Part shown: positions 15,242 to 46,798 of the stretch, piece after piece
Numbering within the stretch: the first letter of the stretch is position 1
How the letters are laid out: each line of letters starts with the position of its first letter
Assembly: GCA_964570315.1 (NCBI GenBank)
Contig: CAZMXX010000001.1
Coordinates: 3,649-67,648 of the forward strand
Source: an uncultured Anaerolineaceae bacterium
Lineage (GTDB): Bacteria; Chloroflexota; Anaerolineae; 4572-78
DNA length: 64,000 bases
Direction of reading: 5' to 3'
Program-made: the position numbers and the translations under genes
The notes under the pieces: model-generated
The model's input: the letters and a program-made list of their open reading frames with translations, nothing else
What the model was told of the DNA's origin: nothing
The model's database searches: none

Positions 15242-15261
15242 AATAAAGGATGTTTCAAGTT

Positions 15262-16032
15262 ATGCTGAACACGCACTCCCAAACCGACACCCCGCTCTTG
15301 GCGGTCACGCTCAATATTGACGGGATGACCTGCAACCACTGTGTCGCCGCCATTCAATCCGGCGTGAGACAGCTTGCGGGCGTGAAATCCGTACAGGTGA
15401 GTTTACGAAAACGCACCGCTCGCATCACCTTCAACCCGGAAAAAACGTCCGTGCCCGCGCTGAAAGCGGCGGTCATTGAGGCGGGATACTTCATCGCCGG
15501 AGAAGATACGCCAACCGCCGTCCTGCCATCCGCCTCAAAAAGTCTTTTCCGGTATTGGCAATTTCGGGTGATTTTTTTCGGCTTGCTCGGCACATTCGGG
15601 CTGATGGCGATCTATCTCGGCTTGGTCAGTTGGGCGGAGGGTTGGGCGCACGCCGTTGAATTAATGCTGGAAGACGCCTGGATTGTGGGACCCATTTTAG
15701 CCGGGTTCGGCATCCAAGTGGGACTGTACACCTATTTAAAAACCGTGGTGCACGCCGCCGGACACGGAACCGGCGCGATGGCGGGCGCGGGCGGCGGCAC
15801 ATCCACCGTGGCGATGGTCGCCTGCTGCGCCCACCACGTCACCGATGTGTTGCCGCTGCTGGGGCTTTCTGCGGCGGCAACATTTTTAGCCGATTACCGC
15901 ATCCCGTTCATGGTCGTGGGGTTGGTCACCAACCTCATCGGCATTGGCGTCATGATTTATGTGATTTTCAAAGAACGCAATCGAATGCGGCAGTTGATGG
16001 TCGCCGTTCCCGCAGAAATGAACACCCATTAA
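15262..16032 (+). CDS. HMA (heavy-metal-associated) domain fused to a multi-TM membrane domain
   Basis: GMTCNHCV metal-binding loop and ferredoxin-like HMA fold, then about 4 TM segments including VACCAHHVTDVLP. ATG 15262 is preferred over 15250 on RBS spacing. Confidence 0.8.
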   Translation: MLNTHSQTDTPLLAVTLNIDGMTCNHCVAAIQSGVRQLAGVKSVQVSLRKRTARITFNPEKTSVPALKAAVIEAGYFIAGEDTPTAVLPSASKSLFRYWQFRVIFFGLLGTFGLMAIYLGLVSWAEGWAHAVELMLEDAWIVGPILAGFGIQVGLYTYLKTVVHAAGHGTGAMAGAGGGTSTVAMVACCAHHVTDVLPLLGLSAAATFLADYRIPFMVVGLVTNLIGIGVMIYVIFKERNRMRQLMVAVPAEMNTH

Positions 16033-16101
16033 TGCCGCAACACTTTGGGGCATCGCCGCCATCCGATGCCCCGACAAAAAAATTATCGCGAGGAATTCAT
16101 A

Positions 16102-16581
16102 ATGAAACGTTGGATTTTAACCCTGTTGGTGGTCAGCATCGGGCTGATAGCAACGGCATGCGGCAACAGCGCCGCCCCCGCCGAAGCCTCAAAACCGGCT
16201 CAGCAACCCGCGCCCGTCTCCGCACCGGCACAAGCAAGCGCACCGGCTGCCGCCGAGTTTGCGCCGCAAACAAACGATGAAAATTCGGTGACCGTGGAAG
16301 TAACACCGCTGAACATCACCGACACCGGCATGGACGTGAAACTCGCTTTCAACACCCACTCCGTGCCGCTGGATTTTGACCCCACCCAAATCATCGTCCT
16401 GCGTGATGCCAACGGCACGGACATCCATCCCGTCAGTTGGGATGGCAGTGGACCCGGCGGGCATCACCGGAAAGGCACGTTGCATTTTGAGCTGGACTCA
16501 CACCCCCAGCAATTCATCGAGCTGGTGGTGCATGATGTTGCCGACATCCCGGCGCGCACATTCCGTTGGGATTTGCAATAA
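16102..16581 (+). CDS. Hypothetical lipoprotein
   Basis: MKRWILTLLVVSIGLIATACG lipobox, Ala/Pro-rich linker, about 100-aa beta-rich domain containing GGHHRKG. The upstream part of ORF 16045 is discounted. Confidence 0.65.
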   Translation: MKRWILTLLVVSIGLIATACGNSAAPAEASKPAQQPAPVSAPAQASAPAAAEFAPQTNDENSVTVEVTPLNITDTGMDVKLAFNTHSVPLDFDPTQIIVLRDANGTDIHPVSWDGSGPGGHHRKGTLHFELDSHPQQFIELVVHDVADIPARTFRWDLQ

Positions 16582-16607
16582 TTTCATTTTAAAGGGGAGA
16601 CAACTGC

Positions 16608-17615
16608 ATGGAGAATCTAACACCACTACCGGAAACGCCGGAGGAAGCACCCGTCATCGCACCGGAACCGGCGCTTCCGGCATCAAAACCCGGCAAACCG
16701 CCGACGCTGAGCCTCCGCGCAAAAGCAATTATCCTGCTGGCAACATACGCCATCGGGTTGCTGAGCGGATTTTTAGTGTGGGGCTGGAAACCGCTCACCG
16801 CGAACACGCCGGAAATCGTCGCCGTACCGACGGTTGCGCCAACCGCAACGCCGGTTCCCGTTTTGCCCACCGAATACACCCTGCCGGTATCTTTCGGCGA
16901 TTTGGGTCCCCAATTAATCGAAGCGGGCGCAATTGACTATGAAAAATTCATCCAAATATACCAGCGTTCCGGCAATCCGCTCTCGGATGAACAGCTCACC
17001 ATCCTGTCAAAGGGCAGCGATGCCCCCATCGTCTTCAACCGTCAGAACGCCTATTTCCTGCTGAACTTCTTCTGGGCATTGGGATTGACCAACGAAAACA
17101 CCTTGCTCACCGACGGTCCGATGGTGCAAAACAGCGGTGGCAACGTGGCGCGATTCGCCTCAACCGGCGGCTGGACGGTCGGCACCAAACCCGTGACCGA
17201 ACTATACGCCAGCACCCCCCTCGTCCCGCTCACCTCGGAGCAGGCGGGCATTCTGGCGACGGTCGCCTCGGCGGTGTATCGTCCATGCTGCAACAACCCC
17301 ACCGCTTTCCCGGACTGCAACCACGGGATGGCAATGCTGGGTATGCTGGAACTGCTGGCGGCAAACGGCGCCACGGAAGACGAACTTTTTGAAGCGGCAA
17401 AATATGCCAACACCTTCTGGTTCCCCCAGCAGAGCGAAGAAATCGCCACCTTTTTCCGCAATGCCAAAAACGTGACCTTCGAGCAGGCGGATGCGCGCGA
17501 TTTTGTGGGACCGTACGTGGCATCCGCCAGCGGTTTCCAAGCCGTACATCAATGGCTCATCGAAAACAACCTTCTGCCGCAAGCGCCTTCCAGCGGCAAT
17601 AGCTGTGGAGTGTAA
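16608..17615 (+). CDS. Hypothetical membrane-anchored protein with a conserved Cys cluster
   Basis: N-terminal Pro-rich region, one TM, soluble domain with YRPCCNNPTAFPDCNHGMA. No family recognised. Confidence 0.7.
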   Translation: MENLTPLPETPEEAPVIAPEPALPASKPGKPPTLSLRAKAIILLATYAIGLLSGFLVWGWKPLTANTPEIVAVPTVAPTATPVPVLPTEYTLPVSFGDLGPQLIEAGAIDYEKFIQIYQRSGNPLSDEQLTILSKGSDAPIVFNRQNAYFLLNFFWALGLTNENTLLTDGPMVQNSGGNVARFASTGGWTVGTKPVTELYASTPLVPLTSEQAGILATVASAVYRPCCNNPTAFPDCNHGMAMLGMLELLAANGATEDELFEAAKYANTFWFPQQSEEIATFFRNAKNVTFEQADARDFVGPYVASASGFQAVHQWLIENNLLPQAPSSGNSCGV

Positions 17616-17616
17616 C

Positions 17617-18039
17617 ATGAAACGAGTACGCATTTTCGGGGTATTCGGGGCTGTTTTTTTGCTGATACTTCTCTCGGCATGCACGGGCAAAGCGCCGCAA
17701 GCCGTCGCCTCGCCCACCAGTTTCGATTTTGGGGAAATTGGACCGATAGACCCCGTTTCCACCACTTTCACCATTTCAAACACCGGTACCGCCCCGCTCA
17801 TCATAGAGGGCATCACCACCTCATGCAGTTGCACCGCCGCCGAAATCAGCGAGGACACCATCGCCCCCGATGGCTCCGCGACGCTGACCGTCACATTTGA
17901 CCCGCAGGTACATGACGGCGCAACCGGACACTTTTTGCGATATGCCTATCTGCAAACCAACGACCCGGAGAACCCGGAATTAAAGGTGGAAATCACCCTT
18001 GATGTCGTTGAAAATAAATCTACACAGGAGACAAACTAA
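17617..18039 (+). CDS. DUF1573-family protein (lipoprotein-like)
   Basis: Signal peptide with LLSAC. FDFGEI...FTISNTGTAPLII...SCSCT...TNDP matches the DUF1573 pattern (F-x-FG, N-x-G, CxC). Confidence 0.75.
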   Translation: MKRVRIFGVFGAVFLLILLSACTGKAPQAVASPTSFDFGEIGPIDPVSTTFTISNTGTAPLIIEGITTSCSCTAAEISEDTIAPDGSATLTVTFDPQVHDGATGHFLRYAYLQTNDPENPELKVEITLDVVENKSTQETN

Positions 18040-18650
18040 TGGGTACAGCCACATACAAAAAACGGAAAAAAAGCTCTAAAAGCCGACGCCGGCAGAAAAA
18101 CAACAGCTCATTCTGGCTGATTGCCGTGGGCGCGTTGATATTGGTTTTGGGCGGCATCATCATCATTCTGAGTGGACAAAGCGGCGGGGGCGGCAATACC
18201 GACCCGATGTCGGCAAAAAATTTACTGCCGCTCACCGACCCGGTCAACCCGATTGAGGGCTGGCATGACATGGAAAATCCGGTTAACCCCAACCAACCCA
18301 AAGATTCCCTGCCCGCCGGCACCCCACAACCCAACATCGATATTCCCATCACCTATTTTGATTTCGGCACAATTCCCGCCGCGCCCGACAACGCCGTTCA
18401 AACCTTCCCCATTCAAAACACCGGCGATGAACCGCTCATCATCAAGCGGATTGTGACTTCATGTGCCTGCACCACCGCCGAACTCACCAGCAGCGTGATT
18501 GAACCGGGCAAACGTGCCGACCTGACCGTCATCTTCGACCCCGATTTTCACGATACACAGGGTCCCGTAAAACGAATTGTGTGGATGGAAACCAACGACC
18601 CGGATATGCCCGTGGCTGAAGTCTCCATCACCGCCAACGTGCAAAAATAG
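18039..18650 (+). CDS. DUF1573-family protein with an N-terminal TM anchor
   Basis: TAATG overlap with the previous gene. Basic N-terminus, TM, FDFGTI...FPIQNTGDEPLII...SCACT...TNDP. Confidence 0.75.
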   Translation: MGTATYKKRKKSSKSRRRQKNNSSFWLIAVGALILVLGGIIIILSGQSGGGGNTDPMSAKNLLPLTDPVNPIEGWHDMENPVNPNQPKDSLPAGTPQPNIDIPITYFDFGTIPAAPDNAVQTFPIQNTGDEPLIIKRIVTSCACTTAELTSSVIEPGKRADLTVIFDPDFHDTQGPVKRIVWMETNDPDMPVAEVSITANVQK

Positions 18651-19437: not shown

Positions 19438-19535
19438 ACACGTAAAACTACCTATACCCACCCGGTAATTCACCCCTATTACCCTACTCTGATTTATGAT
19501 ATGCTTCATTTAGCTTGAGGCTGATTGGAAATGTT

Positions 19536-20144
19536 ATGGCGCTTAAAACTCGTTTAGCTCTTTTAAGTACATTAGCGGAAACTCACACGGAAGCGATTCA
19601 ATATAACCTGAAAGCACTGGCAAAAGTGATTGAATACCTGAATCCGGATATGCTGTGCGTCGAATTGCCACGCCGGCACTGGGAACTCCATGACTTGTCG
19701 CACGCTTCCATTGAAGTGCGCGAAAGTTTGCTCCCCATCGCCGATTTAACGGACGTGGTGGTACTGCCCATGATGTCGCAGGACACCCGTCAATTTTCCG
19801 ATTTTATGCCCAAAAGCGGCTGGCGTGGCTGGTGTGCCGACTCATTGAGCCGCGCTTTGGTGCGGGCACAACGCGCCGCCAACGACATTGACACCATCCA
19901 CGCTAAAACGTACCAAAATATGTGTCACACCCTCTGTCTCACCAGCGAAATGTTCTGGACGGCAGAAGCTCGCCGCGAATGGCACGAGCAGAATCACGCC
20001 ATGCTGGAAAATATTCTGCTCGCCATCCGCCAAGACCCGGGGCGACGGGTGCTGGTGGCGCTGCAATGTCAGCGCGTCCATTGGCTGGAACCGAAACTCA
20101 AAAAAATTCCGGATATTGACTTGGTAGACTTTCGAGATTTGTAA
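19536..20144 (+). CDS. Hypothetical protein
   Basis: About 200-aa ORF with no recognisable motif. First ATG in an ORF that the track starts at a TTG (19515). Confidence 0.55.
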   Translation: MALKTRLALLSTLAETHTEAIQYNLKALAKVIEYLNPDMLCVELPRRHWELHDLSHASIEVRESLLPIADLTDVVVLPMMSQDTRQFSDFMPKSGWRGWCADSLSRALVRAQRAANDIDTIHAKTYQNMCHTLCLTSEMFWTAEARREWHEQNHAMLENILLAIRQDPGRRVLVALQCQRVHWLEPKLKKIPDIDLVDFRDL

Positions 20145-25280: not shown

Positions 25281-25302
25281 CCCGCCGAATGGCGGGTTTT
25301 TT
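25281..25302 (+). terminator. Rho-independent terminator
   Basis: cccgcc-gaat-ggcggg followed by tttttt. Confidence 0.7.
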
Positions 25303-25406
25303 ATTGCGCCAAGTGGCGCTATCAGCACGATAGTATTTCAGGTAAACTATTGGCAATTGGTTCTCGTACCAATCATCACAAGCCAAAAATGATATGGGAG
25401 CATTTG

Positions 25407-26021
25407 ATGAAACTTCGTTCAATTTCGTTAATCGTTGTCGTTTTTCTTCTCCTCGCCTCCAGCCTCAGCGCGTGCGGCGGCAGTGCCTCCGACCCGTTGA
25501 CGTTGGCGCCGAAAGATATTCTGCCCGATGAAGTGAAAACGGCATCAACCTCGGTGCAGGAAGCGTACCGCTTCGCCGCCGCCAACCCCGATGTGCTGGC
25601 ACAATATCCCTGCTACTGCGGCTGCGGCAACATGGGACACCAAAGCAACCGCGACTGTTTTATTAAAAACATCAATCCCGATGGCACAATTGAATTTGAT
25701 AATCACGCCAATGGCTGCACCCTCTGCGTGGACATCGCCCAAGATGTGATGCGTTTGATGCGTGAGGGGAAAGATGCCGTCACCATCCGGGATTATATTG
25801 ACACAACCTACAGCCCGTTTGGTCCCGGCACGGATACGCCCCCCGTTGGCAGTGTGAACAGCACCAGCAGCGTGAGCAGCACCGGCGCCGCCAACGACGG
25901 CAGCGCAATCGAAGCCTGCACCAAAGAAGTTCCCACCTGCGGCGAAGATACCGGCGGCTCCGCGCCCGCGCTCAACCTTGACGGCGCGCCGCAATCCGCC
26001 GCGCCCGCACCCGGAAAATAA
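25407..26021 (+). CDS. PCYCGC-motif lipoprotein
   Basis: Signal peptide plus lipobox (LSAC). YPCYCGCGNMGHQSNRDCF and a later GCTLC. Ser/Gly/Ala-rich tail. Confidence 0.8.
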   Translation: MKLRSISLIVVVFLLLASSLSACGGSASDPLTLAPKDILPDEVKTASTSVQEAYRFAAANPDVLAQYPCYCGCGNMGHQSNRDCFIKNINPDGTIEFDNHANGCTLCVDIAQDVMRLMREGKDAVTIRDYIDTTYSPFGPGTDTPPVGSVNSTSSVSSTGAANDGSAIEACTKEVPTCGEDTGGSAPALNLDGAPQSAAPAPGK

Positions 26022-26027
26022 TTGCCC

Positions 26028-26483
26028 ATGAAACGCCGACTGCTGTTTTTGCTTCCGTTTTTAGTGCTGGCGCTGGTCATCGCGCTGGTTCCCGTACCGG
26101 CGCTGGCAGAACCGACCACCCGTTACATCACCGTCACCGCCCGCCAATTCGCGTACGACCCGCCCGTGTTGCGCGTCAATCGCGGCGACCGCATCATCAT
26201 CACCCTGCAAGCGGCGGATGTGATGCACGGGTTCTATCTGGACGGGTACGGAATTGATGAACAGGTTGAACCGGGGCAAACCCGCCAAATCGAGTTCATC
26301 GCCGACCGTACCGGCAAATATCGCTATCGGTGTTCCGTCAGTTGCGGACCGCTGCATCCGTTTATGATTGGCGAATTGGTGGTTGAACCCAACCTCACTT
26401 TTGCCCGCGCTATCGGGCTGATGGGCGTGGCTGTCGCCGGAACATTCATGTATTTACGACGGAATTCCGTTGAAATAAATTAA
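26028..26483 (+). CDS. CuA-type cupredoxin domain protein with a C-terminal TM anchor
   Basis: Signal peptide, then VMHGFY-(34 residues from H to C)-CSVSCGPLHPFM. This is H-x34-C-x3-C-x3-H-x2-M, the classical CuA ligand spacing. C-terminal TM IGLMGVAVAGTFMYL. Confidence 0.8.
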   Translation: MKRRLLFLLPFLVLALVIALVPVPALAEPTTRYITVTARQFAYDPPVLRVNRGDRIIITLQAADVMHGFYLDGYGIDEQVEPGQTRQIEFIADRTGKYRYRCSVSCGPLHPFMIGELVVEPNLTFARAIGLMGVAVAGTFMYLRRNSVEIN

Positions 26484-26505
26484 TTTTTTTGAGAGAGGAT
26501 ATGTT

Positions 26506-26997
26506 ATGAGTAAAAAAGTTCGCCGCAAAAAGACTGTGGCTCGCAAAAAAAACCCGTCGTGGGTGTGGGCGGCAGTTGCCGGCGCCGTACTGATTGTCAT
26601 CGGCGGGCTGGCGCTACTGTTCACCTCAAACCAGTCCGATTACGTCCCGGAAGTGACCGGCGCACCCGCGCTGAAAGTTGACCGCGAGCAGATTGATGAA
26701 GGCGACGTGAAGTTGGGCGTCACCAAACGCACGGTTTTCCGGCTGAAAAACGTCGGGGATAAAACGCTGGAAATTTTGGATGAACCGCAAGTTCAGGTTG
26801 TGGAGGGGTGTTGACCGCCCCGCGCCGTCGTCGGTTCGATGACACTCAAACCCGGACAAGAAACTACTTTGACTATGAGCTACCTGATGCACGGAGTTGA
26901 AATGGGGGGGCAACATCAGTTTGATGTCCACGTGAAAACCAATGACCCTGCCCACCCGGAACAGTTATTGGTTGTCCGTTCAAACTGGGTAGAATAA
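26506..26997 (+). CDS. DUF1573-like protein interrupted by one in-frame TGA (codon 103): candidate selenoprotein or recent pseudogene
   Basis: GAGAGAGGA RBS. TM anchor, then FRLKNVGDKTLEI...VVEGC-TGA-PPRAVVGSMTLKPGQETTLTMSY...HVKTNDPAHPE...SNWVE-TAA. The frame stays open for 60 codons after the TGA and keeps family features (PG turn, TNDP) seen in the paralogs at 17617 and 18039. Confidence 0.55.
26827..26843 (+). promoter_or_regulatory. SECIS-like stem-loop 12 nt downstream of the in-frame TGA
   Basis: GUCGUCGGUUCGAUGAC forms a 6-7 bp stem (one G-U pair) with a GGUUC/GUU apical loop. Its size and distance from the UGA resemble the minimal bacterial SECIS upper stem-loop. Confidence 0.35.
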
Positions 26998-27046
26998 TTC
27001 CACTTCGCCCCCGCCGAAAACACTCGGTGGGGGCGCAAAGGTTTTC

Positions 27047-28423
27047 ATGATGCAAAACCGTTTTGAACTCACCCGATACCGCTGGCTTAAAAAAATGTTG
27101 CAGTGGCGCGGCTTTCAGCCGGTATTGATGCTCTTCACCCTGTTCTTTTTCGTCATTGCCATCCTCACCGGCTTTTTCGGCACACCCGCCGGCAGTCATA
27201 ATTTCGGCATTATTTTTGTGTGGATTGTCTGGTGGGCGTTGCTCATGATTGTGATGGTGCCTTTCTTCGCGCGGTTGTGGTGCACCATCTGCCCCATCCC
27301 CGCCCCCGGCGAATGGCTTCAACGGCGTTCGCTCATTCGGCGCAGACCGGGCAAACTGTACACCCTGCGCCGACGCTGGCCCCGAAAATTACGCAACATC
27401 TGGATGCAAAACTTCGGGTTTTTGGCGGTGGCGCTCTTCAGCACCATCATCCTCACCCGCCCGTCGGTGAGCGCCTGGGTTTTACTGGGGATGATTCTCG
27501 TCGCCATTGCGCTCAGTATTCTGTATGAAAATCGCATCTTTTGCCGGTATGTCTGCCCCGTCGGGGGATTTATCGGACTGTATTCGCTCACCTCCACCCT
27601 TGAATTGCGAGTGAAAGATGCGCAAATCTGCAAAGACCACAAAACCAAAGATTGCGTCACCGGCAACGAGCTGGGCTACGGTTGCCCGTGGCTGGTTTAC
27701 CCCGGCAAACTGGAGCGCAACACCTACTGCGGCATGTGTACCGCCTGCCTCACCACTTGCACCCAAGATAACATCGCCATCAACCTGCGTCCGTTTGGCG
27801 CGGATTTGCTGGTAGAAAAAGGTCGCTCACTCGATGAAGCCTTCAAAGCGCTCATTATGCTGGCGTGCGCCATGCTGTACAGCGCCGTTCTGCTCGGTCC
27901 GTGGGGCTGGGTGAAAGATTGGGCGAATATGGACACCCTGCCCCATTGGGCAATTTATGCCGTTTCATTCATTGCGGTGAACTTGCTGGCGCTGCCGGGC
28001 ATCTTCTGGCTCACCGCCGCCGCTGCCCGCAAACTCGCCCGGCTGGAAATCCCCCTGAAAAAAGTATTTGTAGATGTGGCATACAGTCTGGTGCCGATGG
28101 GTCTCATCGGTTGGATTGCCTTCAGCTTCAGTTTCGTCTTTGTGAACGGCAGTTACGCCCTCTCCGTCCTCAGCGACCCCTTCGGCTGGGGCTGGGATTT
28201 GTTCGGCACACGCAGTTTCCCGTGGACACCCATTCTGCCCGACATGGTTGCCGGGCTACAAATTCTGCTGTTGCTGGCAGGGCTGATATATGCTATCATC
28301 ATCGCCTATCGCATTATTCGCCGCCGCGCCGCCACCGACAATCTGGCATGGCGGGGGACGCTCCCGGTGGCGGGCTTCCTTTCTGCGGTCACATTCACAT
28401 TTTTGAGGTTATACATCGGATGA
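27047..28423 (+). CDS. NapH/NosH/MauN-like integral membrane polyferredoxin (4Fe-4S binding)
   Basis: About 8-10 TM segments. CxxxCP-type motifs LWCTICPIP and FCRYVCPVGG. Ferredoxin motif YCGMCTACLTTCTQDNI plus a KDC...GYGCP half-site. Confidence 0.85.
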   Translation: MMQNRFELTRYRWLKKMLQWRGFQPVLMLFTLFFFVIAILTGFFGTPAGSHNFGIIFVWIVWWALLMIVMVPFFARLWCTICPIPAPGEWLQRRSLIRRRPGKLYTLRRRWPRKLRNIWMQNFGFLAVALFSTIILTRPSVSAWVLLGMILVAIALSILYENRIFCRYVCPVGGFIGLYSLTSTLELRVKDAQICKDHKTKDCVTGNELGYGCPWLVYPGKLERNTYCGMCTACLTTCTQDNIAINLRPFGADLLVEKGRSLDEAFKALIMLACAMLYSAVLLGPWGWVKDWANMDTLPHWAIYAVSFIAVNLLALPGIFWLTAAAARKLARLEIPLKKVFVDVAYSLVPMGLIGWIAFSFSFVFVNGSYALSVLSDPFGWGWDLFGTRSFPWTPILPDMVAGLQILLLLAGLIYAIIIAYRIIRRRAATDNLAWRGTLPVAGFLSAVTFTFLRLYIG

Positions 28424-29412
28424 AATTTCTTGCCGACCGCGCCGAACAACGCGCCATCATCGCTCTGATATTCATTCTCATCGGGGTTCCGGTGATAATT
28501 TTGGGCTACCAATTCGGTATCCGCCCGCGCTTAAACACCATCCGCACCATTGATATTGTTGCCGCCGCGCCGGAAAACGGTGGATTCCAACCGGCGGCTT
28601 TTGAAGTAAACGCGGGCGAAACCATCCGCCTGCGGGTTTCCTCGCCCGATGTGGTTCACGGGCTGGCAATTGGACCCGGCGAAGGGTGGGATTTCGGCAT
28701 CGTCAAACCCGGCGAGGTGAAGGAAATTGAAATTACGTTTCCGGAAGCGGGACGATACACGCTCTATTGCAACGTGTGGTGCAGCCCCTCCCACTGGCGC
28801 ATGCGCGCCGCCATTGATGTATTCGGGGATGCACTCGCCACAACCCCCGACCCCATCATTGAACGGTTGACGGCACAGGGCATTGACATTGATGCCCCCC
28901 ACCCCGCCGAGAACGCCCCCGCAGAAAAGCCGTCGGTGGCGCGCGGAAAGACGCTGCTGGCAGACGTTCAATCCACTCTCCCCCCGGAGGTGCTGTCCGC
29001 AGCATGGCGGCAGTCGCACAGCCCGGCAGAGGCGCGAGCATTGCTCATCAATTTAAATGATGCCGAAGCGTGGGATATTGTGGCGGCGCTGTGGCTGGCA
29101 GACGCCGACCCCGTGCAATTGGATGAATCGCAGGTGTTGTATGCGAAAAATTGCGCGGCGTGTCACGGCGCAACCGGCATCGGCGACGGCATCGGCGCGG
29201 CGACGTTGATTGAGCAGGGGTACATGGGCGACGGTCCCGCCGCCTTCGCCGACCCGACGACGATGCTCGGCGCGAGCAGCGATATTCTGTATGGCAAGCT
29301 TCGGCGGGGCGGTATGGGCACGGGGATGCCGGGATTCGGCACGGTGTTCACCCGCGAACAATCGGCGCAGATGATTGATTATCTGTGGACATTTGTCTTC
29401 AGCACGGAATGA
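28420..29412 (+). CDS. CuA-type cupredoxin fused to a class I cytochrome c (caa3 subunit II-like, but orphan)
   Basis: ATGA overlap with the polyferredoxin stop. One TM. VVHGLA-(36 residues from H to C)-CNVWCSPSHWRM gives C-x3-C-x3-H-x2-M. C-terminal CAACHG with a downstream GMGTGMPGF Met region. The 5' part of ORF 27865 overlaps the previous gene in another frame. Confidence 0.8.
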   Translation: MKFLADRAEQRAIIALIFILIGVPVIILGYQFGIRPRLNTIRTIDIVAAAPENGGFQPAAFEVNAGETIRLRVSSPDVVHGLAIGPGEGWDFGIVKPGEVKEIEITFPEAGRYTLYCNVWCSPSHWRMRAAIDVFGDALATTPDPIIERLTAQGIDIDAPHPAENAPAEKPSVARGKTLLADVQSTLPPEVLSAAWRQSHSPAEARALLINLNDAEAWDIVAALWLADADPVQLDESQVLYAKNCAACHGATGIGDGIGAATLIEQGYMGDGPAAFADPTTMLGASSDILYGKLRRGGMGTGMPGFGTVFTREQSAQMIDYLWTFVFSTE

Positions 29413-29498: not shown

Positions 29499-29629
29499 CG
29501 GCACAACACTTTGCGCCGTTTGCACCCCACCGCGATAAGCCTGCGCTTCCGATGCCCACACCATGCCGTCACGCCGAACTCGGGTGCATGTCCACAGTGT
29601 CTTTTTGAGCGGTGAAGGAGAGAGCGGGA

Positions 29630-31564
29630 ATGAAGTTGTTCAACACCTTCCAAAAACGAATCGGGTTGATATTTCTGGCGTTCTTTCTGCTGGTTTCCAC
29701 GTCTGTGGTCGCCAGTTATTTGATTATTGAGACACAAAAACAAGATGCGTTGGTCATTAACCTTGCCGGACGGCAACGCATGTTGATTCAATCAATGACC
29801 AAAGATGTGCTGGAAATTGAACGCGACACCGGAAATATGCGTTTGGAACATATCAACTCATTGGGGAACAGCGTCGCCAAGTTTGACGCAACCCTGACCG
29901 CGCTCATACAAGGGGGCAATGTCCCCTACCCGCCATACCCCTCGGTGTACCTGCCCGCCACCAGAACACCCGTGATTCTGACCCAGTTGCAGGAAATTTC
30001 GGACACGTGGCAGTTATTCCGCCTGACGCTCCAGCCCATCACCGCCCCGCAAACGTCGGATGAAGAGATTGCCACGGCAATTGTATCGCTGCGAGACCTT
30101 TCGCCGGTACTCCTTCAGCAAGCCGATGAAATTGTGCGGTTGTACGAAAACAATTCCAACCAAAAAGTTCTGTACCTACAACGCATTCAAGTGGTGTTTT
30201 TTCTCAGCGCCCTGATTTTGCTTGCCGTCGGTGTTGCCGTCACCCAAAAGGCGATTGCGCCGCTGCACATATTGGGCAAAACCGCCAAACGCATCGGCGA
30301 TGGCGATTTGAACACGCCGGTTGCGGTTACCGGGGTGGACGAGATTCAATTGCTGGCGCGCACGCTCGACAGTATGCGCCGGCAATTGCATGCCTCGCAA
30401 TCCCGACTGGAGGAGCGGGTTTCGCAACAAGCCTCGGAGCTTGCCACCGCGTTTGAATTGAGTCAGGAAATTGTCGCCGAATTGGATATTGACCACTTGC
30501 TGACTTCGGTGACGAACCGCGCCAAATCGCTTGCCAAAGCCGACGTGGCGAGTTTATGTTTGCTCACCCCGGCGGGGAAAACGCTGCGACTGGTTGCCAA
30601 CAGCAACGGCTTCATCCCCCCGCAAGATATGGAACATCCCGTTGAGAACGGGTTAGCCGGTGATGTGGTTTTTGGAGATAAAACAGTCAGCACGGAAACG
30701 GCATGCGCCAACTGCACCTTTATGCAGCATACGGACGGCTTCTGTGTGGCAACCCCCTTGAAAGCCGGAGAAAAAACGCTGGGCGCGCTGTGTGTCATCA
30801 CCGGCAACCCCAACCATGTCAATTCAGGACACTCGCGTGCGCTGTCGTTATTGGCGAACTCGGCGGCAATTGCCATCACCAACGCGCAACTGGTCAAAGA
30901 GAAACAGATACAGGCGCAACAATCGGCATCGCTGGCGGAACGGGAGCGATTGGCGGCAGAGTTGCATGACAATTTGGCGCAAACGTTAAGTTTCCTGAAC
31001 CTGAAAACCGACCACGTGACCGGGTTGCTGCACCATGAAAAATACGGCGACACGCTGGCAGAACTGCAAGCCATGCAATCCGCGATACAATTGGCATACG
31101 GGCAAGTCCGCGCCGCGCTGGTTGGGCTGCGCGAACCCCTTTCCGCACCGGGCGACATCACCCAGAAGATACAATCCATCATCGCCGATTTTTCCGATGC
31201 CACCCGGCTCCCCGTTCAATTGACGCATTCAAGCCCGAACACACTGACGCTTCCCCGCACAGTGCAGACGCAAGCGCTCCACATCATCAAAGAAGCGTTG
31301 GCGAACATCCGCCGCCATGCTCACGCCACCCATGTTCACATCACCGTGGCGCGTAACGACGCCTCGGTTCGAGTTTCCATCACAGATGACGGCATCGGTT
31401 TTGACACAACGCGCGCCGGCGACGAAAATCATTTAGGGTTGATGATTATGCACACCCGCGCCAAACGCAGCGGCGGGCAATTAGCCGTGCAATCGGCGCC
31501 GGGAGAAGGAACAACCATCACCGCAACCTTCCCGTTAGTGACTGCGGACAAAAACTCACGCTAG
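29630..31564 (+). CDS. NarX/NarQ-like nitrate/nitrite sensor histidine kinase (PilJ/NarX N-terminal sensor, HAMP, GAF, HisKA_3, HATPase_c)
   Basis: P-box-like INLAGRQRMLIQSMTKD in the periplasmic domain. Second TM, HAMP, GAF-like region, H-box AAELHDNLAQTL, NIRRHA, DDGIGF, GLMIMHTRA. GAAGGAG RBS. Confidence 0.85.
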   Translation: MKLFNTFQKRIGLIFLAFFLLVSTSVVASYLIIETQKQDALVINLAGRQRMLIQSMTKDVLEIERDTGNMRLEHINSLGNSVAKFDATLTALIQGGNVPYPPYPSVYLPATRTPVILTQLQEISDTWQLFRLTLQPITAPQTSDEEIATAIVSLRDLSPVLLQQADEIVRLYENNSNQKVLYLQRIQVVFFLSALILLAVGVAVTQKAIAPLHILGKTAKRIGDGDLNTPVAVTGVDEIQLLARTLDSMRRQLHASQSRLEERVSQQASELATAFELSQEIVAELDIDHLLTSVTNRAKSLAKADVASLCLLTPAGKTLRLVANSNGFIPPQDMEHPVENGLAGDVVFGDKTVSTETACANCTFMQHTDGFCVATPLKAGEKTLGALCVITGNPNHVNSGHSRALSLLANSAAIAITNAQLVKEKQIQAQQSASLAERERLAAELHDNLAQTLSFLNLKTDHVTGLLHHEKYGDTLAELQAMQSAIQLAYGQVRAALVGLREPLSAPGDITQKIQSIIADFSDATRLPVQLTHSSPNTLTLPRTVQTQALHIIKEALANIRRHAHATHVHITVARNDASVRVSITDDGIGFDTTRAGDENHLGLMIMHTRAKRSGGQLAVQSAPGEGTTITATFPLVTADKNSR

Positions 31565-31574
31565 GCAAAAAGTT

Positions 31575-32249
31575 ATGGCAGACATTTCAATTTTATTGGC
31601 AGACGACCATGAACTTTTCAGAGAAGGGTTAGCCGGGCTGATTAACGCCCAGCCGGACATGAAAGTGGTGGGGCAAGCCGGGGACGGGCTGGAAGCGCTC
31701 ACGATGGTGCGCGATTTGCAGCCGACTCTGCTGGTGATGGACATCAGTATGCCGGTGTGTACCGGCTTGGAGGCAACGCGGCTCATCCGAGAAACGCCCG
31801 GCATCGCCCAGCCCATCATCGTGATTTTAACCGTGCATGACGAAGGGGAAGAGCTGTTTGAAGCCATCAAATCAGGCGCGGACGGTTATCTGCTCAAAAG
31901 CGGCAACTCGGCTGATTTTTTGCAGGGTATCCGCGCCGCCCTCAACGGCGAGGCAACCCTCGCCCCTAAATTGACCACCCGCCTGATGCACGAATTTTCG
32001 CGCATTTCAACGCAGCGTCGCCCCCGCTCCAACCCGGATGCCGTTTCATACAACTTAACCTTCCGCGAAACGGATGTGCTCAAGCTCATTGCCGCCGGCG
32101 CAACCGACAAAGAGATTGCCACCGAATTGACCATCAGCCTGCACACCGTCAAAACCCACGTCCGAAATATCCTGAGCAAATTGCAGGTCACCAGCCGCTG
32201 GCACGCCGTTCGCGTTGCCCACCAACACGGATTAATCCCCGAAAAGTAA
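31575..32249 (+). CDS. NarL-like (LuxR-family) response regulator
   Basis: REC (ILLADDH, LVMDISMP, LTVHDE) plus LuxR HTH (FRETDVLKLIAAGATDKEIATELTISLHTVKTHVRNILSKL). Confidence 0.9.
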   Translation: MADISILLADDHELFREGLAGLINAQPDMKVVGQAGDGLEALTMVRDLQPTLLVMDISMPVCTGLEATRLIRETPGIAQPIIVILTVHDEGEELFEAIKSGADGYLLKSGNSADFLQGIRAALNGEATLAPKLTTRLMHEFSRISTQRRPRSNPDAVSYNLTFRETDVLKLIAAGATDKEIATELTISLHTVKTHVRNILSKLQVTSRWHAVRVAHQHGLIPEK

Positions 32250-32844: not shown

Positions 32845-33714
32845 ATGACTGGCACAACTGTTGTATCCACATTAATGGTCAGAAAATGGATGGCGGTTTT
32901 CTGCTTAACCGGCATCCTGCTGACCGTGTTCGTTGTTGGCGTTGGTGCGGCTCCCCCCCGGCAACAAGGCGGAGAAGCCATATTTCAACAAAAGTGCGCG
33001 GCATGTCACACCATCGGAGGCGGGGCATTGGTTGGACCGGACTTGAGCGGCGTGACCAACCTGCGCGACGTAGATTGGCTCACGCGCTGGATTTCAGCCC
33101 CGGACAAAATGCTGGCTGACGGCGACCCCATCGCCACCGATTTGCTTCAGCAGTTCAACAACATCCCGATGCCCAATCTGGGGTTGACTGACGCGGAAGT
33201 TGCCGCCCTGATTGCGTACATGCAAGCGCAGGACGGAGGTGGCACTGCCGCAGCCGAACCGGCGGCGCAACCGGAAGCCATTGCCGCCACACCCCCCGGC
33301 GACCCCGATATCGGCAGCCAATTGTTCATCGGGGAACGCGCCCTGGCAAACGGCGGACCCGCCTGCATTTCGTGCCACTCGGTTGATACCGTCCGCGGAT
33401 TGGGCGGCGGCACGCTCGGACCCAACCTCACGCACGTATATGGGCGTTTCGGCGACGCCGGACTGAGCGCGTCGCTGAAAGGATTGCCCTTCCCCACCAT
33501 GCAGGGCGTCTTCTCCGCAAAACCGCTCACCGATAATGAAGTTGCCGATTTGCACGCATTCTTCAGCCAAGCCGACCGAACCACCCAAAAACCCATCAGC
33601 AGCACCGGCTTTCTCATCCTCGGTATTTTGGGAACGCTGGTATTTCTTGGGCTGAGTCAACTCATTTGGATAAAACGATTAAACGGGGTGCGCAAACCCC
33701 TGGTAGGGAGATAA
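32845..33714 (+). CDS. Membrane-anchored diheme cytochrome c, NarC-like
   Basis: GGAGGA RBS. N-terminal TM, CAACH and CISCH heme motifs, C-terminal TM. Lies immediately upstream of narG, as in the Thermus thermophilus narCGHJI operon. Confidence 0.8.
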   Translation: MTGTTVVSTLMVRKWMAVFCLTGILLTVFVVGVGAAPPRQQGGEAIFQQKCAACHTIGGGALVGPDLSGVTNLRDVDWLTRWISAPDKMLADGDPIATDLLQQFNNIPMPNLGLTDAEVAALIAYMQAQDGGGTAAAEPAAQPEAIAATPPGDPDIGSQLFIGERALANGGPACISCHSVDTVRGLGGGTLGPNLTHVYGRFGDAGLSASLKGLPFPTMQGVFSAKPLTDNEVADLHAFFSQADRTTQKPISSTGFLILGILGTLVFLGLSQLIWIKRLNGVRKPLVGR

Positions 33715-33717
33715 ACT

Positions 33718-37344
<3,627 letters not shown>

Positions 37345-37372
37345 GCAACCATAAAACAGAAGGAGCAATTAA

Positions 37373-38869
37373 ATGAATGTAAGAGCACAAGTTTCGATGA
37401 TGTTTCATTTGGATAAATGTATCGGTTGCCACACATGCAGTCTCGCTTGTAAAAACATTTGGACAGACCGCGAAGGCACTGAATATATGTGGTGGAACAA
37501 CGTGGAAACCAAACCGGGCACGGGCTATCCCACCCGTTGGGAAGACCAAGACAAATACCGGGGCGGCTGGCAAAAGAACGGCAAAGGCAGCGTCCACCTC
37601 CGCGCCACCGATAAACTGCGCGGCTTCACCAACATCTTCCATCAACCGTATCTGCCCACCATTGATGACTATTACGAGCCGTGGACATACCGCTACAGCG
37701 ACCTGTTCGACGCCCCTCCCGGCGACGACCAGCCCACCGCCCGCCCCATCTCGCTCATCACCGGCGCACCGATGGACATCGAAGCCGGTCCCATCTGGGA
37801 TGATGACATGGGCGGCTCGAACATCTACGCCGCCAATGACCCCGACTTCGCCGACCTGACCGAGCCGGAAAAACAAGCCTTCTTCGAGATGGAACGGATG
37901 GTATTCTTCTACCTGCCGCGCATCTGCAACCACTGCCTCAACCCCGGTTGTGTGGCGGCATGTCCCTCCGGCGCGCTGTACAAACGCGGCGAAGACGGCA
38001 TCGTGCTGGTGAATCAAAATGTGTGCCGGGCATGGCGCTACTGTGTTTCGGCGTGCCCGTACAAAAAAGTGTATTACAACTGGAAATCGGGCAAATCGGA
38101 AAAATGTATCCTCTGCTACCCCCGATTGGAAAGCGGGCAAGCGCCGGCGTGCTTCCATTCCTGCGTCGGACGCATCCGCTACCTCGGCGTGGTGCTGTAT
38201 GATGCCGACCTGATTGAAGAAACCGCCGCCGCCCCCGACGATGAACTGGTGCAGCGTCAGCGGGAGATGATTTTAGACCCCTTCGACCCCGCCGTCATCG
38301 CCCAAGCGAAAAAAGACGGCGTGCATCACTCGGTCGTTGAAGCCGCGCAGAAATCGCCGGTATACCGCTTCGTGAAAGAATGGCAACTGGCATTGCCGCT
38401 GCATCCGGAATTCCGCACCCTGCCAATGTTGTTTTACATTCCGCCATTGTTGCCGGTGCTGGCACGCATGGAAGATGGCGACACCTACAACGTGGATGCC
38501 ACCGATTATTTCGGTTCGCTGGAAAAAGCCCGCGTCCCCATCAAATACATGGCAAACCTGTTCACCGGCGGGAATGAAGGGCATCTGGTGGAAACGTTTG
38601 AAAAATTGCTCACCGTGCGCATGTTCAAACGTTCCGGTGAAGTGGGCGATGTCAGCCTTGAAAAAGTGAAAGAAATGATGGCAGCAACGGGACTCACCGC
38701 CGAAGCCTGCGAAGAAATCTACCGGCTCACCTCCATTCCCACCTTCGATGAACGGTTCGTCATTCCGCCCATGCACCGCGAATACGCCACCGAACTCATG
38801 GGCGACCCGTACACCTTCAAAGCCGAAACCGGCATCGGGTTCCGCGGCAAACCTACCAGGGGGTTATAA
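37373..38869 (+). CDS. narH: Respiratory nitrate reductase beta subunit NarH
   Basis: MFHLDKCIGCHTCSLACKNIW, CNHCLNPGCVAACP, CRAWRYCVSACPY, KCILCYPR: the four Fe-S cluster motifs of NarH. Confidence 0.97.
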   Translation: MNVRAQVSMMFHLDKCIGCHTCSLACKNIWTDREGTEYMWWNNVETKPGTGYPTRWEDQDKYRGGWQKNGKGSVHLRATDKLRGFTNIFHQPYLPTIDDYYEPWTYRYSDLFDAPPGDDQPTARPISLITGAPMDIEAGPIWDDDMGGSNIYAANDPDFADLTEPEKQAFFEMERMVFFYLPRICNHCLNPGCVAACPSGALYKRGEDGIVLVNQNVCRAWRYCVSACPYKKVYYNWKSGKSEKCILCYPRLESGQAPACFHSCVGRIRYLGVVLYDADLIEETAAAPDDELVQRQREMILDPFDPAVIAQAKKDGVHHSVVEAAQKSPVYRFVKEWQLALPLHPEFRTLPMLFYIPPLLPVLARMEDGDTYNVDATDYFGSLEKARVPIKYMANLFTGGNEGHLVETFEKLLTVRMFKRSGEVGDVSLEKVKEMMAATGLTAEACEEIYRLTSIPTFDERFVIPPMHREYATELMGDPYTFKAETGIGFRGKPTRGL

Positions 38870-38871
38870 CC

Positions 38872-39408
38872 ATGCAGCAACAAAAATTTTACCGCTATTG
38901 CAGTGAACTGCTCAACTATCCGACAGAACAGTTGGAAAATCAGGCTCGCACATGTGTGACGCTGCTGGTGGTAGATTACCCTGAAGCGGCACAATCCATG
39001 CAAAAATTCCTCGATGGCATCAAAGGTATTTCTTTGGGCAGGCTGGAAGAAATTTACACCGGCACGTTCGATGTCAGCCCCACCTGTTTCATCTACGCCG
39101 GGTACATCTTGTTTGGCGAAAGTTTCAAACGGGGCAGATTCATGGTTCGGTTGCAGGAAGAATATTACAAATACGGGTTCGACCGGGGAAAAGAGCTTGC
39201 CGACCATCTGGCGGTGATTATGCGGTTTTTGAGCAACATAGAAACAGACGACGAATTCACCCAATCGCTGAAAACTGATTGTCTCATTCCCGTATACACC
39301 AAAATGCTTGCCGGGTTCAATCAGGGCGGGCAAAATCCGTATTTCCATCTGCTGCATGCCATCATCAACGTGCTGGAGAAAACACAAGTAACGGTACCTG
39401 CCGGTTAA
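38872..39408 (+). CDS. narJ: Nitrate reductase assembly chaperone NarJ
   Basis: 178 aa at the canonical position between narH and narI. TorD/NarJ-like helical protein (YTGTFD..., ADHLAVIMRFL). Confidence 0.85.
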   Translation: MQQQKFYRYCSELLNYPTEQLENQARTCVTLLVVDYPEAAQSMQKFLDGIKGISLGRLEEIYTGTFDVSPTCFIYAGYILFGESFKRGRFMVRLQEEYYKYGFDRGKELADHLAVIMRFLSNIETDDEFTQSLKTDCLIPVYTKMLAGFNQGGQNPYFHLLHAIINVLEKTQVTVPAG

Positions 39409-39440
39409 CACAACCGGCGCACACCAATTGGAGGAATGTT

Positions 39441-40130: not shown

Positions 40131-40175
40131 CATCAAACTATTTTTGCAAATTTTTATTGATAGGAGAACAAAACA

Positions 40176-41516: not shown

Positions 41517-41548
41517 ATTCACACACACAGAGTATTGTGGAGGAACAC

Positions 41549-41692
41549 ATGAATAACGTAGAAAAAGTCGAACACGAAAAACAAGAAGGCTGGTACAAAT
41601 ACGGGATGATGTTCATCTTTTTTGAGGCACTGATTGCGGTGGCACAAACCATCTTCGCGCTGTTTTCCACCCTTTCAGGCTCGGCAGGGTAA
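41549..41692 (+). CDS. Possible small membrane protein (47 aa)
   Basis: GGAGGA RBS 7 nt upstream of the ATG, one hydrophobic helix (MMFIFFEALIAVAQTIFALF). No homology evidence. Confidence 0.3.
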   Translation: MNNVEKVEHEKQEGWYKYGMMFIFFEALIAVAQTIFALFSTLSGSAG

Positions 41693-41700
41693 TAACGATT

Positions 41701-41979: not shown

Positions 41980-41989
41980 AGGAGCTGTC

Positions 41990-46645: not shown

Positions 46646-46798
46646 ACCCATATCAGTGGGTAAAAGTGCCCGCGAGATAGTGTCATGTGTATTTCTGATG
46701 GAGGTGTTTATTGAAAAAAACCCGGAAATAACTGTACCATATGTACTCTGCCACGTATTTATGCCACATTTCTCAACATGGAGGTTAGAGGGATAAAA

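Follow-up and report, generated by a model that had tools for sequence, protein, structure and literature searches.

A 64,000-nucleotide (nt) stretch of contig CAZMXX010000001.1 (GenBank assembly GCA_964570315.1, positions 3,649 to 67,648) from an uncultured Anaerolineaceae bacterium, hereafter called the window, carries at positions 25407–29412 five open reading frames (ORFs) in one orientation. They encode a PCYCGC lipoprotein (g1), a CuA cupredoxin (g2), a DUF1573-like protein (g3), a polyferredoxin (g4) and a CuA–cytochrome c protein (g5). Gene coordinates and spacing (intergenic distances of 6, 22 and 49 nt and finally a 4-nt ATGA overlap through which g5 is translationally coupled to g4) match exactly those of a preliminary description made from the sequence alone. 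The locus comprises:

25281..25306, + strand: intrinsic terminator, CCCGCC-GAAT-GGCGGG (25281–25296) followed by the T-run TTTTTTATT, ending the PocR/HTH_17 regulator gene
25407..26021, + strand: g1, PCYCGC-domain lipoprotein with lipobox and a CxxC motif (C104-T-L-C107); PF13798, 1.4e-30
26028..26483, + strand: g2, secreted CuA cupredoxin anchored in the membrane by its C-terminus; COX2, 6e-10, and alignment to the ba3 CuA domain
26506..26997, + strand: g3, membrane-anchored DUF1573-like protein with an immunoglobulin (Ig)-like fold, a predicted selenoprotein with the motif G-C-U-P-P; DUF1573, 29.2 bits, Ig-like, 32.7 bits
26812..26814, + strand: predicted selenocysteine (Sec) codon TGA of g3; in aligned orthologues 27 stop codons (all TGA) and 25 Cys
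26827..26843, + strand: hairpin GUCGUCG-GUU-CGAUGAC resembling a selenocysteine insertion sequence (SECIS), beginning 15 nt after the U of UGA
27047..28423, + strand: g4, polytopic polyferredoxin with about nine transmembrane (TM) helices; Fer4_5, 31 bits, NapH/MauN, 3e-6
28420..29412, + strand: g5, fusion of a CuA cupredoxin with a class I cytochrome c, with an N-terminal anchor; Cytochrom_C, 5e-12, ba3 CuA, 1.7e-10

The 5′ boundary of the operon is marked by the terminator of the preceding PocR/HTH_17 regulator gene, which proved to be a clean intrinsic terminator. The promoter-like element proposed downstream of g5 fared less well: its –10 box is perfect, its –35 box matches at three of six positions, and promoter-like matches were no commoner in this region than in shuffled sequence. 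No + strand terminator was found between g5 and the histidine kinase gene at 29612, and the operon region gave no Rfam matches.

According to textbooks, CuA centres belong to only a few enzymes. In the present operon, the full set of binuclear ligands first noted in the preliminary description was recovered in both g2 (H67-x34-C102-x3-C106-x3-H110-x2-M113) and g5 (H80-x36-C117-x3-C121-x3-H125-x2-M128), the latter together with the CAACH motif of its cytochrome c. The best matches of g2 in the Protein Data Bank (PDB) were to the CuA domain of Thermus ba3 oxidase subunit II (4e-17 for an engineered variant, about 1e-13 for the wild type), with which it aligns ligand for ligand and in register. 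The cupredoxin of g5 likewise aligned best with this domain (1.7e-10), again with all ligands in register. All five g2 ligands were invariant in 81 of 81 orthologues. In g5, C117, C121 and H125 were retained in 82 of 82 aligned orthologues, M128 in 76 of 76 and H80 in 82 of 83, the exception being a single H80→Q exchange; the class I cytochrome c domain (PF00034, 47.4 bits) kept its haem ligands C245, C248 and H249 and the distal M303 in 71 of 71. With the CuA and haem ligands thus invariant save for one substitution, the objection that they might not be conserved, raised with the preliminary description, falls away.

The two proteins resemble oxidase subunit II in their cupredoxin fold, ligand set and ligand spacing, as seen in Thermus ba3 CuA and in caa3 subunit II, whose CuA–cytochrome c fusion is mirrored in g5. 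They differ from it in lacking a subunit I partner, in their anchoring (g2 has a signal peptide and a helix at its C-terminus, g5 one helix at its N-terminus; no match to COX2_TM, the N-terminal two-helix hairpin, in a Pfam scan of either) and in their scores of 43.7 (g2) and 28.3 bits (g5), below the curated CoxB cut-off (TIGR02866, 147.7 bits). No third CuA domain was found in the 64-kb window. CopI, for which faint NCBIfam matches were seen, and PmoD are likewise small extracytoplasmic cupredoxins from copper-related gene sets, but neither is known to be coupled to a polyferredoxin or a cytochrome c. Like g2, PmoD consists of a cupredoxin with a helix at the C-terminal end, and its CuA-like site forms across a dimer; the site of the copper resistance protein CopI is mononuclear.

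For g4, the best family-level matches lay within the N-terminal 250 residues (residues 67–248) and were to NapH/NosH/MauN (3e-6, 2e-5), with scores far from the curated cut-offs (TIGR02163, 26.9 vs. 213 bits; NF007013, 23.6 vs. 234 bits). Its earlier characterization as a NapH-like Fe-S protein with CxxxCP motifs stands in part: the Fer4_5 match and the weak NapH/MauN similarity bear it out, but the first motif is CxxCP (C79-T-I-C82-P) and only the second is CxxxCP. Together with one canonical CxxCxxCxxxC and one degenerate C-x7-C-x9-CP motif, which would hold two [4Fe-4S] clusters, these are predicted to lie in a cytoplasmic domain; all four motifs are invariant, and 12 cysteines of g4 never vary. 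The distribution of Lys and Arg residues (6 in the N-terminus, 9 in loop 80–112, 12 in the 102-residue Fe-S domain, then 5 and 3 on the presumed cytoplasmic side; 0, 1, 1 and 1 in the four outer loops) suggests about nine TM helices with the N-terminus inside and with both Cys-Pro motifs and the Fe-S domain facing the cytoplasm, in agreement with the 8–9 hydrophobic segments seen across the g4 family. The C-terminal half adds a further 200 residues with five TM helices and Trp-rich outer loops; TM2 is also rich in Trp. A Pfam scan found no FixG_C Ig-like domain in g4, the Ig-like protein g3 being separately encoded, and the NosR model NF046105 scored 14.5 bits against a cut-off of 1000, with no FMN_bind domain. 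By curated thresholds, g4 thus lies outside the NapH, NosR and CcoG families, just as g2 and g5 lie outside CoxB. A PDB sequence search returned no significant relative of g4.

The remaining two products are rich in conserved cysteines. The identification of g1 as a PCYCGC lipoprotein is upheld by its lipobox and by a PF13798 score of 106.7 bits (cut-off 25), and the NCBIfam CYCXC (seleno)protein model gave 74.5 bits, under its 90-bit cut-off. Invariant residues are C69, C71, C73, H78, C84, H100, C104 (or U) and C107; across 74 orthologues, the cysteines of the C-x-C-x-C motif never vary, and the Tyr of the motif is replaced by Phe or His in a few. Position 104, the first Cys of CxxC, is encoded as Cys in 47 of these orthologues and is TGA in the other 27, which carry a conserved hairpin with compensatory A-U to G-C changes in four loci. 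As judged from these alignments, g1 is a protein that alternates between selenocysteine and Cys. Its AlphaFold2 (AF2) model (predicted local distance difference test score, pLDDT, 93) is mostly helical and places CxxC at a helix N-terminus. A fold search of the PDB with this model yielded no relative (best E 4.8), and PDB sequence searches with g1 and g3 no significant match.

In g3, which passes the Pfam threshold for DUF1573 (PF07610, cut-off 26.1 bits), the reading frame V-E-G-C-TGA-P-P is followed by 60 further in-frame codons up to the stop codon at 26995–26997, and the protein sequence downstream of the TGA is conserved in orthologues. These have C-TGA-PP in 27 loci and C-C-PP in 25. The hairpin (consensus GUCGUC(A/G)GUUCGACGAC) is present in 27 of 27 Sec loci and has a stem of 6–7 base pairs and the loop (A/G)GUUC, with 99.4% of cells paired and two compensatory pairs; the corresponding stretch of Cys loci folds significantly less stably (–7.2 vs. 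–10.7 kcal/mol in Sec loci, p=3e-4). On this comparative evidence, the TGA, previously listed as a possible Sec codon, is a true selenocysteine codon. Across loci, g1 and g3 switch between Sec and Cys independently of each other.

Both proteins touch on catalogued families, as CYCXC/OS_HP4 (PF13798, UxxC) and DUF1573 (PF07610, UGC) are listed as selenoproteins of unknown function (PMC13188914, PMC9312934). With the former, g1 shares PF13798 membership and the alternation of UxxC and CxxC. With the catalogued DUF1573 selenoprotein, g3 shares the threshold pass and its predicted selenoprotein nature, but its Sec directly follows the first Cys (C-U) instead of forming U-G-C: the family motif S-C-G-C-T (Sec form U-G-C) is missing in g3 and its orthologues, which have G-C-[U/C]-P-P, in the very columns to which S-C-G-C-T of a canonical DUF1573 neighbour aligns. 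On the OS_HP2 model, g3 scored 25 of 100 bits. We found no paper giving a function or an operon context for the CYCXC/OS_HP4 or DUF1573 selenoprotein families. Sec in other metal-handling proteins has been catalogued, with many Sec proteins tied to Hg or As resistance (PMC13188914).

A genome scan with one genome per species revealed 413 loci encoding a g4 relative. Eighty of these, joined by four loci from exact look-up and less one duplicate, form the set of 83 loci analysed here. Nearly all of the 80 (of 413) belong to Chloroflexota (Anaerolineae, Caldilineaceae, Aggregatilineales, Thermoflexus, Ardenticatenales), with one labelled Rokubacteria, and the best 120 database relatives of g4 are 64–100% identical over the full length. 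The gene order g1-g2-(g3)-g4-g5 is kept across the 83 loci. Where the flanks sufficed (60 loci), g2 was present in 60, the CuA part of g5 in 59 and its cytochrome c in 57, g1 in 55 and g3 in 36. The closest relative (locus L009, 1568–4527; g4 88% identical) retains just the PocR-type regulator, g2 and g4, with g1, g3 and g5 missing, which marks the CuA cupredoxin and the polyferredoxin as the core pair. A plasmid search with g4 recovered only homologues of 25–29% identity outside the module context. For instance, a full-length homologue (28% identical) on Deinococcus ficus plasmid pDFI1 (L090, 5425–8254) overlaps an upstream 308-residue ORF of no family; DUF3105 adjoins it and DUF305 genes lie near. 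No description of this operon or of cupredoxin–polyferredoxin fusions was found in the literature, and the five-gene Chloroflexota operon is real and widely conserved, though apparently not described before.

Haem-copper oxidases were then sought as the obvious partners of CuA domains. The 64-kb window contains no CyoB-like sequence (best E 0.86), in keeping with what had been reported, and tblastn with E. coli CyoB (E<1e-4) gave no match within 10 kb in any of the 83 loci. As this query may miss distant oxidase families, polytopic neighbours (ORFs with 380 or more residues and eight or more hydrophobic segments, g4 itself excluded) were also listed and classified. Some had already been assigned by Pfam (P-type ATPase, YfhO, amino-acid permease, KdpA, YedE-type sulfur transporter), and a Pfam scan assigned others to a sulfate symporter, a Na/H exchanger, FtsX permeases, an acyltransferase, a mannosyltransferase-like protein and a CopC-CopD-cytochrome c fusion. 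COX1 was not found among the polytopic neighbours of the 83 loci, three ORFs of ~400 residues and eight segments having been judged by their length, too short for subunit I, and by the lack of a CyoB match. Additional CuA-like matches near some loci are small stand-alone cupredoxins and not NosZ, and no nos genes lie near the module. Thus neither an oxidase subunit I nor NosZ was detected beside the orthologous clusters, the arrangement that the preliminary description had named as speaking against a new module, and the unit, as had been proposed, travels apart from haem-copper oxidase, NorB and NosZ.

The same holds for nitrate respiration. In the window, the operon is followed by genes for a NarX-like kinase (PilJ-type sensor, HAMP, GAF, HisKA_3) and a NarL-type regulator (29612–32249), and then by a cytochrome c gene, NarG, NarH, NarI and two transporters of the major facilitator superfamily (32845–43540). 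The preliminary description had noted this position. NarGHI genes lie near the module in none of the 83 loci, so that the adjacency in the window is incidental and a link to nitrate respiration was rejected. Likewise rejected was the NarX-like kinase as a dedicated regulator of the module: only its kinase core matches the Cache-type kinase recurring in 39 loci.

Clustering and annotation of the ORFs flanking the 83 loci revealed a different company. Besides regulators (NarL-type response regulator in 42 loci, Cache/HisKA_3 kinase in 39), recurrent families included a Cu P-type ATPase (18 loci), DUF2085 (14), HMA chaperones (13), DUF305 (13), rhodanese (7, or 11 by tblastn), DUF7482 (7) and multicopper oxidase (6), with DUF2933, a CsoR-type metal repressor, Cupredoxin_1, DUF3105 and DsbD_TM proteins also nearby. 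At least one of Cu-ATPase, HMA, DUF305 and multicopper oxidase occurred within 10 kb in 33 of the 83 loci, for an expectation by chance of about 1% (a rough estimate, assuming a handful of such genes per genome). Six loci (L028, L035, L043, L056, L058 and L085) have one or two co-oriented HMA genes immediately ahead of g1-g2-g3-g4-g5, and four of these (L043, L056, L058 and L085) also have a Cu-ATPase gene immediately after g5. A CopC-CopD-cytochrome c fusion is encoded ~3 kb downstream of the module in L034 (14776–17100).

The window itself has a second Cys-rich, copper-type cluster 7–11 kb upstream of the module (14519–18650), encoding a CcdA/DsbD_TM protein (14519), an HMA domain joined to a membrane domain that has a CC pair (15250), a lipoprotein (16099), a Cys-rich protein of 335 residues (16608) that has the motif CC-x8-C-x-H and belongs to no Pfam family, and two DUF1573 proteins of the canonical kind, with the motifs SCSCT and SCACT (17617 and 18039). 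In other genomes, homologues of the 335-residue protein, the HMA protein and the lipoprotein adjoin the module, often beside Cu-ATPase genes. Judging from its gene content, the window carries part of a copper island (CcdA, the HMA-membrane protein, the 335-residue Cys-rich protein and the two DUF1573 proteins).

Selenium-trafficking genes were met more rarely. Genes for YedE, TusA, a cysteine desulfurase/selenocysteine-lyase-like protein, Se_S_carrier and SelD lie beside the module or a fused relative in L007 (7977–12544; SelD near the module) and L094 (2290–5609), and a DsrE/H gene plus a SelD-like AIRS gene beside the fused relative in L092 (10475–12612). As such genes occur in only one or two of the 83 five-gene-type loci, a general link to them was rejected.

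Domain fusions physically connect parts of the module. An exhaustive search of 1.84 billion cluster representatives recovered 323 g4 relatives at E<1e-30. Among the best 150 of them (50%-identity representatives), 69 have at least 560 residues, with the g4 part at the C-terminus, and 24 of these 69 begin with an N-terminal cupredoxin bearing the g2-type CuA motif C-x3-C-G-x-L-H-P-F-M. Pfam architectures comprised COX2/Cupredoxin_1 plus g4 (Fer4_5), two cupredoxins plus g4, cytochrome c or multihaem domains plus g4, and, in P0249 and P0255, an AhpC-TSA/thioredoxin-like domain ahead of cupredoxin and g4. Within 58 long relatives, the copper-binding domains YHS and NosL are fused in five and one, respectively. 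Fusions of g2 and g4 (g2::g4) from Chloroflexota share 60–66% identity with the Caldilineae g4 query (e.g. P0439 from an Ardenticatenaceae metagenome-assembled genome) and are topologically consistent with the separate proteins, as the C-terminal helix of g2 returns the chain to the inside, where g4 starts. An archaeal contig (L092, 8001–10457), which also encodes Alba, has two cupredoxins fused to a polyferredoxin, so that the family extends beyond bacteria.

In P0253, P0255 and P0261, a Fer4_20 plus Pyr_redox_2 module (GltD-like, NAD(P)H) is inserted exactly within the Fe-S domain of g4, which agrees with the placement of this domain in the cytoplasm. Similarly, an Ardenticatenaceae operon (L094, 9624–16541; L095, 1759–7704) encodes in one direction a Cache kinase, a regulator, a 126-residue ORF of no family, the g2::g4 fusion, a dihaem cytochrome c and then two (L094) or one (L095) GltD-like proteins, with a 92-residue ORF between the genes where there are two. 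The predicted cytoplasmic Fe-S domain and these GltD-like relatives make a cytoplasmic electron source more likely. In the preliminary description, g4 had instead been cast as a quinol-linked entry point, a role at odds with this placement, with the flavoproteins of its relatives and with the neighbours of the 83 loci, among which neither a NapG/NosG-like periplasmic partner nor any other ferredoxin family recurs.

Taken together, the operon quite probably encodes a copper-linked, oxidase-independent transmembrane electron module. Its products may form one membrane redox complex, a conduit akin to NosR or CcoG, in which g4 would be a polyferredoxin of the NapH/NosR/CcoG superfamily, its [4Fe-4S] clusters, CxxCP and CxxxCP motifs facing the cytoplasm, with g2 and g5 anchored beside it on the outer face. 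Electrons would enter g4 at its [4Fe-4S] clusters from a cytoplasmic reductant (in some relatives NAD(P)H, by way of a GltD-like flavoprotein), cross the membrane to reach CuA in g2 and g5, and continue to haem c and finally to an acceptor on the outer face. CuA and haem c both have potentials near +250 mV. With these centres outside and an NAD(P)H-linked Fe-S protein inside, outward flow would be the only sensible direction.

The most likely acceptor step would be the reduction of Cu(II) at the cell surface. Copper is the best candidate in view of the copper neighbourhood, the associations with YHS, NosL and CopCD-cytochrome c, and the precedent of CcoG, a Fer4_5 polyferredoxin that is encoded with a Cu-ATPase and acts as a cupric reductase (PMC7558416, PMC8267372). 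The "Cu redox handling" left as an option in the preliminary description fits these neighbours and fusions. The resulting Cu(I) may be captured by the thiolate or selenolate proteins g1 (CxxC/UxxC plus PCYCGC) and g3 (CC/CU), and very tight binding by them would render Cu(II) reduction favourable. Equally, g1 and g3 could be CuA maturation factors resembling TlpA, Sco or PCuAC, as the thioredoxin-like fusions suggest; these roles are not exclusive. The module would then serve copper homeostasis, be it detoxification or cuproprotein supply, and neither a terminal oxidase nor a nitrate-linked branch. We infer topology, outward direction and copper as the substrate, and the explanation as a whole, with outward flow and copper included, seems to us evenly poised between right and wrong.

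Several observations weigh against this explanation. The putative copper role is read from neighbourhood and fusions, and no canonical copper gene lies within 10 kb in 50 of the 83 loci, many of them on short contigs. Nearby copper exporters could merely supply the CuA cofactor, and a cupric reductase within a resistance island is not intuitive. Moreover, CuA at ~+250 mV reduces Cu(II) only if Cu(I) is tightly trapped, and this trapping is assumed. As for the electron path, g4 shows no obvious intramembrane cofactor sites and no conserved His pairs, hence no visible route outward, for which the Trp-rich TM2, a possible cluster on the four CxxCP/CxxxCP cysteines or a bound quinone would be candidates; the AF2 model of g4 (20-sequence alignment, pLDDT 52) is too poor to use; g4 scores nearer to NapH/MauN than to CcoG (no NCBIfam CcoG match at E<0.1); and GltD-like genes accompany none of the 83 unfused five-gene-type loci.

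A mixture of likeness and difference emerges from a comparison with known polyferredoxin systems. CcoG/FixG, encoded in ccoGHIS, is likewise a Fer4_5 membrane polyferredoxin with two [4Fe-4S] clusters and cytoplasmic Cys motifs (PMC7558416). It has a similar genetic tie to a Cu P-type ATPase and CopZ-type chaperones (here, the ATPase gene lies within 10 kb in 18 of 83 loci). Its Ig-like periplasmic domain, whose role is unknown (PMC7558416), is fused, whereas the counterpart in the module is the separate g3 with its Cys-Sec or Cys-Cys pair; CcoG is also not known to have CuA or cytochrome c partners and serves the cbb3 oxidase, and g4 gives no NCBIfam CcoG match. NosR, NirI and RdhC (PceC) follow the same logic: a polyferredoxin part with its [4Fe-4S] clusters lies in the cytoplasm, Cys-Pro motifs (CX3CP in these proteins) mark the membrane interface, and a redox domain on the outer side serves a copper enzyme (NosZ with its CuA) or another periplasmic one. 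Their architecture is reproduced by the g2::g4 fusions, but their outer domain binds FMN where the module has a CuA cupredoxin (or cytochrome c), and the module has an extra five-TM half and no nos genes. NapH, NosH and MauN share the Cys-x3-Cys-Pro and CxxCxxCxxxC motifs with g4, which differs in being 170 residues longer, with ~5 more TM helices (about 9 vs. 4), in its first motif, CxxCP, and in having no NapG/NosG; they are quinol-linked, whereas relatives of g4 are linked to NAD(P)H flavoproteins. By analogy, the module would work most like NosR/NirI/RdhC, with a CuA cupredoxin replacing the FMN domain, and like CcoG. All parts come from known superfamilies; the assembly, the use of CuA and the selenoprotein pair are new.

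Among the alternatives, a respiratory branch would have g4 act as a (mena)quinol dehydrogenase in the manner of NapH/NosH, passing electrons to CuA and haem c on the outer face and through them to a terminal oxidase or reductase encoded elsewhere. A route from a NapH-type protein via cytochrome c to CuA is the accepted path to clade II NosZ (Wolinella nos system), and the weak but specific NapH/MauN similarity of the N-terminal 250 residues of g4, the class I cytochrome c fused to CuA as in caa3 subunit II, and the nar genes and multihaem cytochromes that the operon adjoins in the window all fit this idea. Yet outward flow, the lack of a recurrent NapG/NosG-like partner and the lack of a respiratory neighbour argue against a quinol dehydrogenase, as do the predicted cytoplasmic Fe-S domain and the NAD(P)H flavoproteins that relatives carry as a fused part or encode alongside. 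Nar genes are never adjacent elsewhere, the neighbourhood is one of copper homeostasis and not of respiration, and two Cys/Sec proteins would be left unexplained. The module is thus probably not a quinol-fed respiratory branch, an alternative that we rate as unlikely.

Alternatively, the operon could be a self-contained biogenesis set, in which g2 and g5 are ordinary carriers and all other components (g4 as a cytoplasmic cupric reductase resembling FixG/CcoG, the nearby Cu-ATPase, the HMA proteins, and g1 and g3 as functional analogues of TlpA, Sco and PCuAC) only metallate their CuA sites. Such a set finds its precedent in ccoGHIS, where a polyferredoxin is encoded with a Cu-ATPase (PMC7558416, PMC8267372), and is compatible with the HMA genes 5′ of the operon in several loci and the Cu-ATPase genes 3′ in some of these, with the thioredoxin-like AhpC-TSA domain ahead of the cupredoxin in P0249 and P0255, and with the position of CxxC/UxxC at a helix N-terminus in g1. 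However, the one-to-one covalent fusion of a "client" cupredoxin to its "assembly factor" in many lineages points to joint catalysis, fusions to cytochrome c, YHS and NosL together with the NAD(P)H module suggest sustained turnover, and g1 has no fold relative among Sco, TlpA and PCuAC structures. We regard a pure biogenesis set as distinctly unlikely.

Still more doubtful is another thiophilic element (Se, Hg, Ag, Te) that would be bound by the Cys/Sec proteins and reduced by the redox chain. This would accommodate the selenium-utilisation clusters of L007 and L094, DsrE/H plus AIRS in L092, the rhodanese genes of 11 loci, the ArsR-type regulators that adjoin distant g4 fusions, and the ties of many Sec proteins to Hg or As resistance (PMC13188914). 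But selenium-trafficking genes are confined to one or two of the 83 five-gene loci, where their adjacency may be no more than a consequence of g1 and g3 being selenoproteins, neither mer nor ars genes recur, and copper families (CopA-type ATPase, HMA, multicopper oxidase, CsoR, CopCD, YHS, NosL) dominate, making the proposal improbable. Finally, a split conventional operon, with g2 and/or g5 as subunit II of a haem-copper oxidase, a CuA-type nitric oxide reductase (CuANOR) or a NosZ-type enzyme encoded elsewhere, could draw on the complete CuA ligand sets and the caa3-like fusion, but is scarcely tenable given the absence of CyoB-like genes within 10 kb in the 83 loci and of COX1 among their polytopic neighbours, the missing N-terminal hairpin and low CoxB scores of g2 and g5, the fusion of g2 to the polyferredoxin in many relatives, and the fact that Anaerolineae oxidase operons include their own subunit II (PMC8756737).

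Elsewhere in the window, genes for the cytochrome c maturation proteins CcmF and CcmH (11370–13954) lie upstream of the 14519–18650 cluster, consistent with the many c-type cytochromes encoded in this DNA. Three of the latter, at 46778–51624, are multihaem cytochromes with MtrC/MtrF-like and NapC/NirT-like domains, one of which has collagen-like repeats; their sequences suggest a capacity for extracellular electron transfer. A 908-residue protein (53373–56099) combines lactonase-type beta-propeller, NHL and PKD domains and was ruled out as a lactonase-type NosZ, as it has no cupredoxin domain. Two ORFs of 542 and 209 residues (8326–9951 and 19515–20141) belong to no Pfam family, and no tRNA genes, including tRNA-Sec, were found in the window.

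With the copper-linked electron module as the preferred explanation, CuA appears outside its textbook setting: hundreds of Chloroflexota species pair or fuse it with a NosR/NapH-type Fe-S protein and no oxidase. This provides a tractable new case for transmembrane electron transfer by polyferredoxins; we know of no solved path across the membrane for NosR, NapH or CcoG. PCYCGC/OS_HP4 and a DUF1573 variant, both orphan selenoprotein families, also gain a defined operon. More tentatively, and with doubt outweighing conviction, the module may represent a new class of prokaryotic transmembrane metalloreductases, in which electrons would run from NAD(P)H or ferredoxin through a polyferredoxin to surface CuA and haem c for O2-free reduction of Cu(II), the Cu(I) being handed to Sec carriers. 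If true, this would be the first CuA to serve as an enzyme's exit site outside haem-copper oxidases, nitric oxide reductase (NOR) and N2O reductase, and also the first copper-trafficking pathway that depends on selenium. To our knowledge, the copper biology of these organisms is essentially unstudied, and the module suggests that a copper redox step independent of oxygen exists in bacteria that are abundant in wastewater, sediments and the subsurface.

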